From sequence record PP658200.1: 64,000 nucleotides of DNA, one strand, 5' to 3'. Source of the DNA: Escherichia phage HY126. A program made the position numbers and the translations under genes. Below, in pieces: positions 37,025 through 56,084 of this stretch (position 1 is its first letter; each line of letters begins with the position of its first letter). The notes below the pieces were generated by a model, which did no database searches, had not been told where the DNA came from, and saw only the letters and a list, made by a program, of their open reading frames with translations.

Positions 37025-37227
37025 TATTCTTCTACATGTTGTTTACGACCTTTCTTATCAATAAAGGTATATTCAACGAATGTTCCAATATAGTCTTTAT
37101 CTACATCATGTGGACTATTAATTGGGCATTTAGTACGGCAAATGCGTTCCCATTGACGAATAATTACTGCCTTATTCTTTGGGTCATACGGATGTGGATA
37201 ATGTATATTCATAATAATGGTTCCCAA
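37000..37227 (-). CDS. Hypothetical protein
   Basis: ORF track 75 aa. Confidence 0.45.
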   Translation of the reverse strand: MGTIIMNIHYPHPYDPKNKAVIIRQWERICRTKCPINSPHDVDKDYIGTFVEYTFIDKKGRKQHVEEYCLKVTWL

Positions 37228-37706
37228 TCAACAATCACAATTTCTAGTTTAGTGGAATACGTATCTAAAATCTCTTCAATGACATCCCAGTTTCCACCAC
37301 CGATACCTGCACCAATTCTTGGCATATAAATTACAGGCTTTGTTATCTTATTCTTTCCGAATTCATTTAATTCTATTATACAATTCATTAAAGCAGAGTA
37401 CTCAAAATTAGGTCCCGGCTCAAACTGTGTATAAAGATTAAAGCAATAAGCTTTATGGGTCTTAAAATATTTTTCATAAACCGAATAAGTCCCGAGTTTA
37501 GACTCGTCTCCGAATTCGGTTTGAAGTTTATCGGCTTCCAGAATTTTTGGATAAGCCTTTGCTAATTGTCCTGCTACACCGGCGCCCATTGTATGAAAAC
37601 AATTACACCCATGAGCAATATTATTACCTTTAGAAAACAGGGCGACAATATCGCCCTTGATATAGTTTTTAATCACTTGCTGCAAGTCCTCTAGTATAAG
37701 AGTCAA
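37209..37706 (-). CDS. Macro-domain-like protein
   Basis: ORF track 165 aa; NIAHGCNCFHTMGAGVAGQL resembles macro-domain glycine-rich ADP-ribose-binding loop. Confidence 0.55.
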   Translation of the reverse strand: MTLILEDLQQVIKNYIKGDIVALFSKGNNIAHGCNCFHTMGAGVAGQLAKAYPKILEADKLQTEFGDESKLGTYSVYEKYFKTHKAYCFNLYTQFEPGPNFEYSALMNCIIELNEFGKNKITKPVIYMPRIGAGIGGGNWDVIEEILDTYSTKLEIVIVDWEPLL

Positions 37707-38016: not shown

Positions 38017-38555
38017 TCTTTTATTTCCAGTAGTTTATTTGATTTAAGGTAATTAGCCTTTTCTAGGACTTCAGAAGCATATTTACTTCCAGCACTTGTC
38101 TTCCATCCCGCGTTATATGAGGATATAGCTTTTCTTATATCCCCGTTATGTATATTTAACCAATAAGAAAATTCGATATAAGCCCATCTGGCTGAATTAG
38201 ACCGCTTAGATAGCATTTTCTTAATTTGGGCATCAGTCATATTATAACCAAGCTGGTTAATTCTTGCCCTCATTGTTGGTAGATAATTTTGGAACATTCC
38301 ATACGCATGGTGACCTTTCTTATCTTTAAGATTAATACCGGCAGATGATTCCTGCCATAGTATTGCGGCCATTATGTATCCAAGTCCTTTCTTATGCATA
38401 TTTTCATGCGTTTTAAATTTTCCATCCTTAGAAAACTGTTCCCCAAACTGATAAGCATAATTCAAGTTATCGAGTTGGACATTACTAAAAGTATGCTCGG
38501 AGCTATGTGCTGATAATGAAAGAGCAAATAGACCAGCGAGTAGTGCTTTTCTCAT
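38013..38555 (-). CDS. Periplasmic lytic-transglycosylase-like protein
   Basis: ORF track 180 aa; signal peptide; SLT motifs ILWQESS, GMFQ, SYNAG. Confidence 0.6.
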   Translation of the reverse strand: MRKALLAGLFALSLSAHSSEHTFSNVQLDNLNYAYQFGEQFSKDGKFKTHENMHKKGLGYIMAAILWQESSAGINLKDKKGHHAYGMFQNYLPTMRARINQLGYNMTDAQIKKMLSKRSNSARWAYIEFSYWLNIHNGDIRKAISSYNAGWKTSAGSKYASEVLEKANYLKSNKLLEIKE

Positions 38556-38563
38556 GTTTACCT

Positions 38564-39022
38564 CTAGATTTTAATCACTGCTTTAGAAGCTTTTCCTGGT
38601 AGTCGTTTACTGTTAATAATAGCCATTCTGCATTGAAGAGTCTTCATTTTGAATGCTGGATTTTCGCGACAAACTGTAAGTCCTAACCAAAGATTTCCAT
38701 CAGTTATTTCTAAACGGCCTGGGCGATATTCGACACCTTCGACAAAATCTTCATCAACATCTGGACGTGCTGGCATTGATAAAAATTCTGCAACTTCTTT
38801 AACATGATTTTTTACTTTACGAAATAATTCAAAAACGTAATTCTCATCTATTTCTCTCTGGATGGCACGATCTAAGAGATGTTGAGAATACTTGATATGA
38901 AAGCCTGGTAGTCCAAGAGACTTTGCAGCATCTTTTATACTGGCATTTATTTTGCGGAACTCCGTTTCAAAGATTCGACGGAGTTTATTACGGCGGATAA
39001 AAACGTCTGAATTGATAGTCAT
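38564..39022 (-). CDS. regB: RegB site-specific endoribonuclease
   Basis: ORF track 152 aa; near-identical to T4 RegB (MTINSDVFIRRNKLRR...CRMAIINSKRLPGKASKAVIK). Confidence 0.9.
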   Translation of the reverse strand: MTINSDVFIRRNKLRRIFETEFRKINASIKDAAKSLGLPGFHIKYSQHLLDRAIQREIDENYVFELFRKVKNHVKEVAEFLSMPARPDVDEDFVEGVEYRPGRLEITDGNLWLGLTVCRENPAFKMKTLQCRMAIINSKRLPGKASKAVIKI

Positions 39023-39032
39023 TTTGATTTCT

Positions 39033-39079
39033 CCTCTAGTTGACAGGTCTATAGTAACACAACTAGAGGAGAAGTAAAC
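39033..39079 (-). promoter_or_regulatory. Promoter/stem-loop cassette with SD in 3' arm (upstream of regB)
   Basis: Minus sense GTTTAC-ttct-CCTCTAGTTG...TTACTATAGA...CAACTAGAGG then 10 nt, ATG; 10-bp inverted repeat. Confidence 0.5.
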
Positions 39080-39420
39080 TACTCTTTGAAAGGAATTAAC
39101 TTTTTAACTGCTTTAGATACTTCGTCACGAACCTGGTGGAAGTTCTTGAGCTGTTCAAGGCGTTGTTCGTAATACGCAATCTCATCTTCTTCAAGACAAT
39201 CGTCAGCGTCTTCTTTCAGATATGCCTTGTACTCATTAAAGAGGGCCCATAGGCGATTCTCAAAGTCATCAAGGCTTTGAATTTTCTTGTGCTTCGGAAC
39301 AAGGCCAAAAGGATTGCTTTCAGTTATGCGTCGAGATGCTTCATAATGAGTTCCAAAGCCTGATAGGATTTGAGCCATTAGTATTTTTCCTCTGGTTGAA
39401 ATACCGCACGACAAGCCCAC
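39079..39420 (-). CDS. Hypothetical protein
   Basis: ORF track 113 aa. Confidence 0.45.
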
Positions 39421-39623
39421 ATACTAGCTTCCTTTAGGCGTTCTTTAGCACAGTTCAATTGGGACAAAGCCGTCAGAGCTTCAGGAGTATTTGCTGATAA
39501 TGCTTCTTCTGCCAGGGCGTCTAGAATAAGTCCTAAACGAACTTCGGCATCTTTAATAGCGTTCACTTTACCGATTTTATCATCGGTATGCGGCTTGTAG
39601 CCTTTGATGTCTTCAATCGACAT
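39378..39623 (-). CDS. Hypothetical 81-aa protein at the T4 vs.4 position
   Basis: Track ORF trimmed to ATG 39623 (GAGG SD); [31 protein letters not shown]... Confidence 0.4.
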
Positions 39624-39837
39624 AAGGAATTTCCTCATCTGTGGCAAGGTCATATTCGACCAATTGGATAGGCTCATTAATACCATATCCACGTACAGTG
39701 ATATCAGTTGCCGGATAGTTTCCAGTAATATCACCCGTTCTAAATGCTTCAATGAATGATTGCTCGCCTGAGCAACTAAACCAGGCGGCAAAACATTTTA
39801 AAACATCTTCAGACCCTTCTATAATCAATTTAGCCAT
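39613..39837 (-). CDS. Hypothetical protein
   Basis: ORF track 74 aa. Confidence 0.45.
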   Translation of the reverse strand: MAKLIIEGSEDVLKCFAAWFSCSGEQSFIEAFRTGDITGNYPATDITVRGYGINEPIQLVEYDLATDEEIPYVD

Positions 39838-40199
39838 TATAGACTCTCAGTAAAGGTACGAGCGATAACGTCACGCTGCTGTTCCGGAGTCAGAGAGTTA
39901 AAGCGAACTGCATAACCGGATACACGGATGGTCAACTGCGGATATTTTTCTGGATGCTTAACTGCATCTTCCAGAGTTTCACGACGCAGAACATTAACGT
40001 TCAGGTGTTGACCACCTTCAATTTTAACTTTAGGTTGATGTTCAATTTCAATTTCACGGGCATTCAAACCGTAGAAAATTTCCGGGTCTACAATAGCGTC
40101 TTCTTTAAAAGTCTTAGAGACAATAATCCGGGCTTGAGTACCGTCTTCAAAATAAATAGTGCCTTTGTGTGTGCCTTCAAGAATTTGATATGCTTTCAT
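39837..40199 (-). CDS. Autonomous glycyl-radical cofactor (GrcA/YfiD-like)
   Basis: ORF track 120 aa; C-terminal [27 protein letters not shown] matches the PFL/GrcA glycyl-radical motif. Confidence 0.85.
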
Positions 40200-40205
40200 A
40201 TAACC

Positions 40206-40514
40206 TCAATTAGAAAATAAATTTATCCAAGTTTTTTCTTTAATCAAAAATGGGACGGAATTAAACGCCATTAAACTTTGAGTGATTAATCCCTTAAATG
40301 GCCCATCAATAAATTCCATTTTGAAATGTGGAATACTAGTCATCAGTCGTGCATTAGGAGCAGTACAAAGAACCTGCTGCCCTGCGAACGGACCTTTAGT
40401 TAAACGATATCGTTTAGGTTTAAAATGGTAAATCTCGTAATTTTCTACAAGCGCCCTTTTATTGCATACTGGACTGTTATAACAATATTCAAAAACTTCA
40501 ATAGTGGTCATCAT
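40206..40514 (-). CDS. Hypothetical protein
   Basis: ORF track 102 aa. Confidence 0.5.
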   Translation of the reverse strand: MMTTIEVFEYCYNSPVCNKRALVENYEIYHFKPKRYRLTKGPFAGQQVLCTAPNARLMTSIPHFKMEFIDGPFKGLITQSLMAFNSVPFLIKEKTWINLFSN

Positions 40515-41086
40515 TGCATTCCAATCACAAAAAATTGAGGACGAGCATTACCGCCGATGCAATATTTGCTTTTACAGCAGTACTGTACTGTTTTAATATG
40601 GACATTGTAAATCTTATCCATATCAGGAGCTTTAATAGGCTCGTCAATTATATACAGAATACGAGAAAGCGTTAATCCACGGAATTTAGAACCTTCATTG
40701 CCAATAAAACTACGAACAGAATCAGTAAATAAACGGAATCGAATATCGTCGCTAGAATAACGAGAAAATTCTTTTTCAATGTTGCCAGCAGAAATTTTAG
40801 CATAAGCTGAAGTATTAGAAAGAACAATAACCGTTCCACCATCATACAGCCAATTAGCAGCAAAGTTAGTCACAGCAATTGATTTACCTGATTGTCGGCC
40901 GCCGTCTAAACGAAGTGTACAGTACTGCTTGAGTACGTCTTCAAATGGTGGGACATATCCGTTCTTACAAATTTCTTCTACTCTAGCATCAGAATGGTGT
41001 GTAAAAGCATTCATCAGGGATAGATAAGGTCCAGTTAAAAATGTTCTCATATTATTTCTCTTAAGGTTTGGGCCATTCCGTGGCAC
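40511..41086 (-). CDS. P-loop NTPase of unknown function
   Basis: ORF track 191 aa; Walker A GGRQSGKS, Walker B ILYIIDEP. Confidence 0.5.
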   Translation of the reverse strand: MPRNGPNLKRNNMRTFLTGPYLSLMNAFTHHSDARVEEICKNGYVPPFEDVLKQYCTLRLDGGRQSGKSIAVTNFAANWLYDGGTVIVLSNTSAYAKISAGNIEKEFSRYSSDDIRFRLFTDSVRSFIGNEGSKFRGLTLSRILYIIDEPIKAPDMDKIYNVHIKTVQYCCKSKYCIGGNARPQFFVIGMQ

Positions 41087-41222
41087 ATGTTAGGTCCTTC
41101 GACTCGCTATGTAAACCCATTACCGCATTGCGCTCGACCTTATTACAGGTTGGAAAAGGTACATCACTCAGAGGACTCGACGTTCATGAGGAGAGGTTGC
41201 GTTTCCCTTTATTAGGCAAGAA

Positions 41223-41552
41223 TTATACTCTAGGCTTTTGAGCTTGTTTGGTATTGGATTCCCATGCAGCTTTGGTAATTTTGTTAGCGGCATAACCAAA
41301 GGCATTAGATAGAACACCTTTAGAGTTGAATACATCCAATCCAATAAGTACACCGGCTGCGTTAAATTTAGGAGCAAAGTATGCATTAGTTTTAGAAAGA
41401 GCTTTTTTCAATTCAGGGTCTTGAACCAAACCATCAAAAACGCCTTTACTATTTACTTTATATGTTACTTTGGGATTTTTACCTTCTTCGATAGCAGCTT
41501 TCTGTTCCGCAGATAATGTAACTTCAGTGATAAACTCTTGATACGTTTTCAT
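41223..41552 (-). CDS. Internal-protein-like, capsid targeting sequence MKTYQEFITE
   Basis: ORF track 109 aa; N-terminal 10 aa match T4 IP targeting/protease-cleavage leader. Confidence 0.65.
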   Translation of the reverse strand: MKTYQEFITEVTLSAEQKAAIEEGKNPKVTYKVNSKGVFDGLVQDPELKKALSKTNAYFAPKFNAAGVLIGLDVFNSKGVLSNAFGYAANKITKAAWESNTKQAQKPRV

Positions 41553-55033: not shown

Positions 55034-55321
55034 TTACAGAAGAGTTTTTGCAATAATTTTAAGCTGAGCTACAGAAATGTGCTTAGCTTTAAACAGTGCA
55101 GTCTCTTCAGCCGGAGAGATAACAATAGTAGCGCCATCTTTCTTAGCGGACCACCCGTCTCCTAAGTAAACAGTACCTTTTACTTCTTCGCCGTCAGCTA
55201 GACTAATCATTGGTTTACCCTCACGGCCTTTGTTTGCTTTAATAACTTCGGAAGTAAGGGTTGCTTCAGTCAGAGTAGAAACGTTAGCAACAGGTGATAT
55301 AAATTCTTTATAGGTTTTCAT
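55034..55321 (-). CDS. Internal protein I-like (MKTYKEFISP leader), positional ipI
   Basis: ORF track 95 aa; CTS leader; lies just upstream of 57B as ipI does in T4. Confidence 0.7.
   Translation of the reverse strand: MKTYKEFISPVANVSTLTEATLTSEVIKANKGREGKPMISLADGEEVKGTVYLGDGWSAKKDGATIVISPAEETALFKAKHISVAQLKIIAKTLL

Positions 55322-55398: not shown

Positions 55399-56084
<686 letters not shown>

Follow-up and report, generated by a model that had tools for sequence, protein, structure and literature searches.

The window analyzed in this work (the whole 64,000-nucleotide stretch from Escherichia phage HY126, record PP658200.1) very probably carries both of the standard anti-CBASS genes of T4-type phages, one for the sponge Acb2 (Vs.4) and one for the nuclease Acb1 (57B). 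Sequence comparison further indicates that the hairpin tip of the Acb2 protein lacks 7 aa relative to the usual forms and that it entered the gene as a patch of roughly 150 bp. Both genes are ordinary orthologues, already known, publicly deposited and named. The 81-aa Acb2 sequence occurs exactly in 72 public contigs (e.g. that of Escherichia phage a20), and its one-residue variants in PhAPEC2 and Bas47 have the UniRef label "Acb2/Tad1 hairpin domain-containing protein". The 151-aa Acb1 sequence occurs exactly in 170 public contigs under the UniRef name "Anti-CBASS protein Acb1". In GenBank the vs.4 and 57B genes are mostly labeled "hypothetical protein" or "RNA ligase". No family was assigned to either protein in an NCBIfam scan, and no match was obtained when plasmids were searched by tblastn with Acb2. 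Taking into account that a stretch of 3 kb around the vs.4 slot shares 97-99% identity with Mosigvirus coliphages such as ECO26.1, AV117, JN02, O157 typing phage 3 and HX01, and that AV117 is classified as Straboviridae; Tevenvirinae; Mosigvirus, the window can be assigned to Mosigvirus, that is, to an RB69-like T4-type coliphage.

The original prediction had named two ORFs, 39378..39623 and 55399..55854, as counter-defence candidates. Both are present, on the minus strand. The first had been placed in the vs.4 slot of T4, and the gene order in the window, vs.8-vs.7-vs.6(GrcA)-vs.5-[vs.4 ORF]-vs.3 slot-regB-vs.1-vs-macro(tk.4), is indeed the same as the annotated order of RB69 and T4. The slot is anchored on one side by a vs.5-like ORF (39613..39837, minus strand; phrog_1986, E=3.7e-38; annotated as vs.5 in RB69), and on the other side by the gene of the RegB endoribonuclease (38564..39022, minus strand; Pfam PF10715, E=3.1e-69). 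The vs.6 product is GrcA-like, the vs.5- and vs.7-like neighbours match PHROG families, and the product of the tk.4 slot is a macro-domain protein. For the vs.1 slot a weak, sub-threshold SLT-like match was obtained (E=0.0013, 18.8 bits as compared with a cut-off of 21.3).

The vs.4/acb2 orthologue (39378..39623, minus strand), which has 81 codons plus stop and is predicted to encode a sponge for cyclic dinucleotides, is preceded by the Shine-Dalgarno sequence GAGG, which can be read directly at 39633..39636 (minus strand), 9 nt 5' of the ATG. The start of vs.4 overlaps the vs.5-like ORF by 11 nt, whereas in T4 the two genes are separated by a 36-nt gap. At the other end, the stop codon of vs.4 and the following ATG overlap within TAATG. 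The tight overlap of the ORFs suggests that vs.4 is co-transcribed with the vs cluster. When positions 38400-41400 were scanned for sigma-70 promoters and terminators, 9 sites were found as compared with 8.5 expected from shuffled sequences, and no promoter is claimed. A longer, 137-aa ORF initiated by TTG (39378..39791) was also considered as the real gene. It was rejected: it shares sequence with vs.5 in a different frame, the homologues all begin with M-(S/A)-IEDIKGY, and it is the ATG at 39623 that has a Shine-Dalgarno sequence in front of it.

The similarity to Acb2, which the original prediction had left to be checked by alignment, was readily detected. A phmmer search of all PDB sequences returned a single match, T4 Vs.4 (7UQ2, E=7.8e-30), and the protein scored 65.5 bits with the Pfam family PF24729, Acb2_Tad1_hairpin (cut-off 27, E=4.9e-18). 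Its match in PHROGs was phrog_717. With a profile built from 38 relatives, the Acb2 of Pseudomonas phage PaMx33 (8H2J, 8IXZ) was also reached at an E value of about 1e-3 (1.1e-3). An AF2 monomer model based on the 38-sequence alignment predicts the antiparallel two-helix hairpin of the Acb2 family, with a pLDDT of 84, rising to 93-97 over residues 21-70. In the model, the helices span residues 13-44 and 47-74 and are joined by the two-residue turn N45-T46. When this model was compared with the PDB by Foldseek, the 7uq2 chains ranked at the top (E=1.9e-6, TM 0.73), followed by 8h2x and 8h2j, which are structures of PaMx33 Acb2. The relationship to the PaMx33 protein (8H2J, 8H2X, 8IXZ) is thus seen in the profile and in the predicted fold, but the identity is only about 19%.

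In T4 Vs.4 (7UQ2; Jenson et al. 2023, PMC10097602), cGAMP is stacked by Y8 and F82 and polar contacts are made by Y8, H11, K23 and R79, with S74 close to the ligand and T12 acting as helix cap. The role of Y8 and F82 was confirmed for 2',3'-c-di-AMP in the Panoptes paper (PMC12657218). In an alignment with T4 Vs.4 taken from NC_000866, all residues of the dinucleotide pocket are identical (Y9, H12, K24, S67, R72 and F75 in the numbering of the window protein), and so is the cap residue, T13. Y9 and K24 also correspond to Y11 and K26, which are among the dinucleotide-pocket residues of PaMx33 Acb2 (PMC10312549). The hexamer interface of T4 Vs.4 is formed by L29, A66, A73 and A77, with a milder contribution from F33, whose replacement by alanine is mildly destabilizing (PMC10097602). 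Four of these five residues are identical in the window protein (L30, A59, A66 and A70), and the fifth, F33, is conservatively replaced by L34. Among 121 sequences (120 cluster representatives and the query), the contact and interface positions are practically invariant, with a column entropy of about 0.

These residues fall into two conserved modules separated by a variable one. The N-terminal ligand-binding and interface module (39513..39623, minus strand; codons 1-37) includes Y9, H12, T13, K24, L30 and L34, and 33 of its 37 residues are identical to T4. The C-terminal module (39381..39449, minus strand; codons 59-81), with A59, A66, S67, A70, R72, F75 and P77, is identical to T4 at 21 of 23 positions. 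Between them lies the hypervariable hairpin tip of minimal length with the turn N45-T46 (39450..39512, minus strand; codons 38-58), in which identity to T4 drops to 4 of 29 aligned columns. The window protein is thus like T4 Vs.4 in its slot, its cGAMP contacts, most of its interface and its predicted hairpin, and unlike it in that the tip has been replaced, the length is 81 rather than 88 aa, and the CxxC pair of the T4 tip is absent.

In comparison with T4, pN/pS was 0.046 for the N-terminal module, and for the segment L63-Y81, where pS was 0.57, there were no nonsynonymous differences (pN/pS 0). It should be noted that pS values in the conserved modules (0.57-0.79) are near saturation. In comparison with Bas47, likewise a carrier of the short allele, nine of the ten differing codons were synonymous. 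Because pN/pS is 0-0.05 relative to T4, and because nearly all codon differences from Bas47 are silent, the substitution pattern identifies vs.4 as an expressed gene under purifying selection and not a decaying remnant.

Judged by its T4 orthologue Vs.4, the protein would form a hexamer of helical hairpins, in which pairs of protomers would make up three pockets that close around a cyclic dinucleotide (e.g. 3',3'-cGAMP). In these pockets Y9 and F75 would stack on the ligand, whereas H12, K24, S67 and R72 would provide polar contacts. The cyclic dinucleotide would be sequestered rather than degraded, and the CBASS effectors would stay inactive. It is this likeness to the T4 protein that makes hexamer formation, ligand binding and the in vivo phenotype probable for the window protein.

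The lengths of the 121 homologues range from 81 to 98 aa, thus the protein encoded here belongs to the shortest class. The difference is located in the tip: in the 114 sequences in which both anchors could be located, the segment from G31 to L63 has modes at 38 and 43 aa, and its length in the window protein, 31 aa, is the minimum, found in only three of them. Across most of residues 41-58, column entropy is 2-3.4 bits (121 sequences). A second 81-aa lineage (P0002) is 74% identical to the window protein and has a tip of the same length but different sequence. P0002 is encoded upstream of regB in other T4-like contigs, in the same slot as vs.4 here, and the minimal tip is thus a viable form. 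A variable middle region of Acb2 has already been described in the literature, and tip variability as such is not new in kind.

The window gene closely resembles the RB69-type vs.4 genes (RB69 NP_861808, JK36 and Bas46) in genus, in the flanking DNA and in the N- and C-terminal modules of the product, but it differs from them by an intragenic patch of about 150 bp (39392..39541, minus strand; boundaries approximate), which has a different ancestry than the corresponding segment of the sister Mosigvirus phages and thus represents an allele swap. It also differs in the length of the product, which is 88 aa in the RB69-type phages and 81 aa here. When the sequence was compared with that of Shigella phage JK36, identity was 96-100% in the flanks but fell to 36-52% in 50-nt windows inside the patch. 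Synonymous differences reach into the conserved C-terminal codons, which argues for an imported segment of different ancestry. The 246-nt allele was found in about 37 phage records; in the RB69-type phages the allele has 267 nt.

Besides the dinucleotide pockets, PaMx33 Acb2 has a separate three-fold pocket, in which R67 and T74 mediate the binding of cyclic trinucleotides (PMC10312549). T4 Acb2 has D61 and T68 at these positions and fails to bind cA3, also after the mutation D61R; its three-fold pocket is crowded by Y37, A57, L60, D61 and T64 (PMC10312549). The equivalents of the crowding residues in the window protein are A38, L50, L53, S54 and N57, and E61 stands at the position of T68. Expressed as changes relative to T4, the lining of the pocket carries Y37A, A57L, D61S, T64N and T68E. 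R67 and T74, which contact the cA3 phosphates and mark the broad-spectrum subclass (PaMx33/JBD67 type), are thus replaced by S54 and E61, and because both phosphate-binding positions are missing, binding of cyclic trinucleotides is not expected; this activity was considered for the window protein and judged unlikely. Most likely, as far as can be predicted from these residues, the short-allele Acb2 keeps the spectrum of T4 Acb2, accepting dinucleotides but not trinucleotides. However, because the lining of the three-fold pocket differs, the spectrum outside the dinucleotide pocket need not be T4-like.

Published data on the Panoptes defence allow a comparison of the two alleles within one species. 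Bas46 (ChristianSchoenbein) and Bas47 (AlbertHofmann) of the BASEL collection both belong to Mosigvirus phapec2. Bas46 has the 88-aa allele, whereas Bas47 has the 81-aa allele, which differs from the window protein only by Q76R. In the Panoptes source data, the fold protection values conferred by VnOptSE were 260, 1300 and 2000 against Bas46 and 2.5, 91 and 50 against Bas47 (geometric means of about 878-fold and about 22-fold, respectively). With KpOptSE, the values were 130, 1300 and 2000 against Bas46 and 10, 1000 and 3333 against Bas47. Restriction of T4 by Panoptes requires dinucleotide binding by Acb2 (PMC12657218). Taking into account this requirement, the restriction of Bas47 by Panoptes suggests, by analogy, that the short allele encodes an active sponge, although the relationship is correlative and the VnOptSE restriction of Bas47 is weaker and noisier than that of Bas46.

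The second candidate ORF, the 57B/acb1 orthologue (55399..55854, minus strand; 151 aa), encodes a predicted 2H phosphoesterase acting on CBASS cyclic oligonucleotides. The two H-x-T/S motifs that had been recognized in it are H43-S44-T45 (55720..55728, minus strand) and H112-I113-T114 (55513..55521, minus strand); they align with the catalytic residues H44/T46 and H113/T115 of T4 57B. The proposed position was also borne out. On one side the ORF is flanked by the gene of the 57A tail-fibre chaperone (55854..56084, minus strand; Pfam PF17594, E=5.9e-23), with gene 1 (dNMP kinase; DNMK, PF21448) close to it. On the other side lies ipI, encoding an internal protein and nuclease inhibitor (55034..55321, minus strand; Pfam PF11634, E=1.1e-49), and the order 1-57A-57B-ipI is as in T4. 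The anticipated similarity to Acb1 was strong: the protein matched Pfam PF23474, Acb1, with 196.8 bits (cut-off 27, E=1.8e-58) and the Acb1 structure 7T26 in the PDB with E=7.9e-59, and it is 84% identical to T4 57B (128 of 152 columns).

In T4 Acb1, the catalytic tetrad H44/T46/H113/T115 is accompanied by the stacking residues Y12, W74, F107 and W147, and by E141, which reads the adenine N6 (PMC9117128). All of these are conserved in the window protein, where, the N-terminus being one residue shorter than in T4, the numbering is shifted by one (tetrad H43/T45/H112/T114; Y11, W73, F106, W146; E140). The C-terminal lid is present as 'LDWAEDLK'. The tetrad, the stacking residues, the glutamate and the lid are features common to the window protein, to T4 57B and to Acb1 of Erwinia phage FBB1 (7T26/7T27; Hobbs et al. 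2022, PMC9117128). The FBB1 protein differs in the first motif, which reads H-T-T instead of the H-S-T present here and in T4. In T4, the degradation of cGAMP was shown to be due to 57B (PMC9117128). Given the high identity to the enzyme assayed in that work, the window protein would be expected to have the same type of cleavage activity: its tetrad residues would act in a metal-independent acid-base catalysis to hydrolyse cyclic di- and trinucleotides that contain adenosine. The sequence matches, which far exceed chance expectation, the predicted fold, the functional residues and the synteny concur with the reading originally proposed, that is, with an Acb1-type 2H phosphoesterase and a Vs.4-type sponge.

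Several other interpretations were weighed against this one. It could be argued that the short-hairpin Acb2 still functions, but that its ligand spectrum has been retuned, owing either to weaker binding of decoys of the 2',3'-c-di-AMP type or to an altered three-fold pocket, and that the swap was adaptive in an arms race between sponges and decoys. The sharp boundaries of the patch within genomes that are otherwise 96-100% identical are consistent with this idea, and so are the location of the second-pocket residues of T4 and PaMx33 in the variable segment, the smaller number of records with closely similar Acb2 (only about 30 phage records at 95% identity or more, as compared with 152 for Acb1), and the stronger VnOptSE restriction of the phage with the long allele. 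We nevertheless consider it unlikely. KpOptSE restricts Bas46 and Bas47 similarly, each allele is represented by one phage with noisy replicates and genomes that differ elsewhere, and long-allele Tequatrovirus phages also span a range of 11- to 3000-fold. Moreover, the residues of the dinucleotide pocket are all unchanged, S54 and E61 occupy the positions of the cA3 phosphate-binding residues of PaMx33, and a variable middle is already known from the family, in which it may be only weakly constrained. It appears quite improbable that the tip cassette is an exchangeable specificity module, with which cGAMP sequestration is kept while some decoys (e.g. the products of OptS from Vibrio navarrensis Panoptes) are bound less, and that Mosigvirus phages exchange tips through recombination to evade sponge-sensing defences. 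The sole hint of such a module is the weaker VnOptSE restriction of Bas47, which is not reproduced with KpOptSE.

It is very unlikely that the 81-aa allele arose from vs.4 by deletion and is now decaying without function. Its length is the smallest among the homologues, and Panoptes is known to select loss-of-function acb2 alleles in T4 (PMC12657218), but the reading frame is intact, the contact residues are kept, the interface is kept except for the replacement of F33 by L34, and the codon differences from Bas47 are, as described above, almost all synonymous. In addition, the allele is found in dozens of phage records and contigs (see above), an independent lineage of the same length exists, the hairpin is modeled with high pLDDT over residues 21-70, and Bas47 is still restricted by Panoptes. 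The original prediction had also mentioned Thoeris, and type I Thoeris is indeed inhibited by some members of the Acb2 family, which bind 3'cADPR (PMC12393519). However, the sponge of this kind, Acb2_43, relies on additional beta-strands at both termini, which build its 3'cADPR pocket, and does not inhibit CBASS (PMC12393519), whereas the Acb2 model contains no strands, and the vs.4 protein has the full set of T4 cGAMP contacts and T4-like termini. No feature found here indicates a Thoeris-type sponge, and we regard it as extremely unlikely that the protein in the vs.4 slot, like Acb2_43, sequesters 3'cADPR and is directed against Thoeris instead of CBASS. Hardly any credence can be given to the assumption that 55399..55854 encodes an RNA ligase or a LigT-type RNA-repair enzyme rather than an anti-CBASS nuclease. 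PHROG 755 is labeled 'RNA ligase', the same label is found in many GenBank records, and the proteins have the 2H superfamily fold in common. Yet the score with PF13563, 2_5_RNA_ligase2, was 16.1 bits (E=0.012), below the cut-off of 27, as compared with 197 bits for Acb1; the residues for nucleobase stacking and adenine specificity are all conserved, and T4 57B, to which the protein is 84% identical, degrades cGAMP. Judged by these comparisons, the "RNA ligase" label reflects superfamily kinship only.

With the two genes read as orthologues of acb2 and acb1, the annotation of their products should be changed to anti-CBASS sponge Acb2 (Vs.4) and anti-CBASS nuclease Acb1 (57B). Beyond correct annotation, the significance of the finding is small. 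The Bas46/Bas47 pair, with the long and the short allele in one species, offers a ready reagent for testing how the variable middle affects ligand spectrum and decoy sensitivity. For phage therapy and host-range prediction, the Mosigvirus phage analyzed here can be regarded as equipped with the standard dual anti-CBASS kit, and it is likely to be visible to sponge-sensing defences of the Panoptes type.

Both alleles of Acb2, the predicted cyclic-dinucleotide sponge, occur within a single species: the long one (88 aa) in the BASEL phage Bas46 (MZ501056, positions 219-485 of locus L012) and the short one (81 aa), which has a minimal hairpin tip, in the BASEL phage Bas47 (MZ501047, positions 301-546 of locus L013). 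In the published Panoptes plating data VnOptSE, a defence system sensing Acb2 sponges, restricted Bas46 about 878-fold and Bas47 only about 22-fold, whereas with the related system KpOptSE there was no clear difference between the two phages.

Labels around the vs locus are unreliable in the GenBank records of the relatives. In various records vs.1, vs.7 and vs.8 are named 'endoribonuclease', some give the vs gene as 'valyl-tRNA synthetase', and the JN02 record lists an N-terminally extended Acb2 of 102 aa. The ORF in the vs.3 slot (39079-39375, minus strand; phrog_2037), for which a Pfam scan returned no match, is wrongly named 'endoribonuclease RegB domain-containing protein' in the JK36 record. 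Counted from its ATG it encodes 99 aa, whereas its RB69 counterpart, ORF117c, has 73 aa.

On the 5' side of regB (ATG at 39022), a perfect 14-bp stem of the CUUCUCCUCUAGUU ... AACUAGAGGAGAAA type was found at 39027-39073 (minus strand), with an RNA MFE of -22.8 kcal/mol (z=-3.5 relative to shuffles). In the predicted fold the GGAG Shine-Dalgarno sequence of regB is sequestered inside the stem. Since GGAG is the cleavage site of RegB itself, the stem may act as a translational or autoregulatory element.

The acb1 gene lies directly upstream of an ipI orthologue (55034-55321, minus strand; PF11634, IPI_T4 nuclease inhibitor, E=1.1e-49), thus two counter-defence genes stand side by side, as they do in T4. 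The ipI product and the protein encoded at 41223-41552 (minus strand) share the N-terminus MKTY(Q/K)EFI, which resembles the leader peptide that directs the internal proteins of T4 to the capsid. In the Bas46 record an 'internal head protein' is annotated in the corresponding denV to vs.8 interval.

The position annotated in T4 as the A1pp phosphatase tk.4 is occupied by a macro-domain protein (37209-37706, minus strand; PF01661, E=2.2e-6). This protein is possibly an ADP-ribose-processing enzyme, and it could matter for ADP-ribosylation-based defences.
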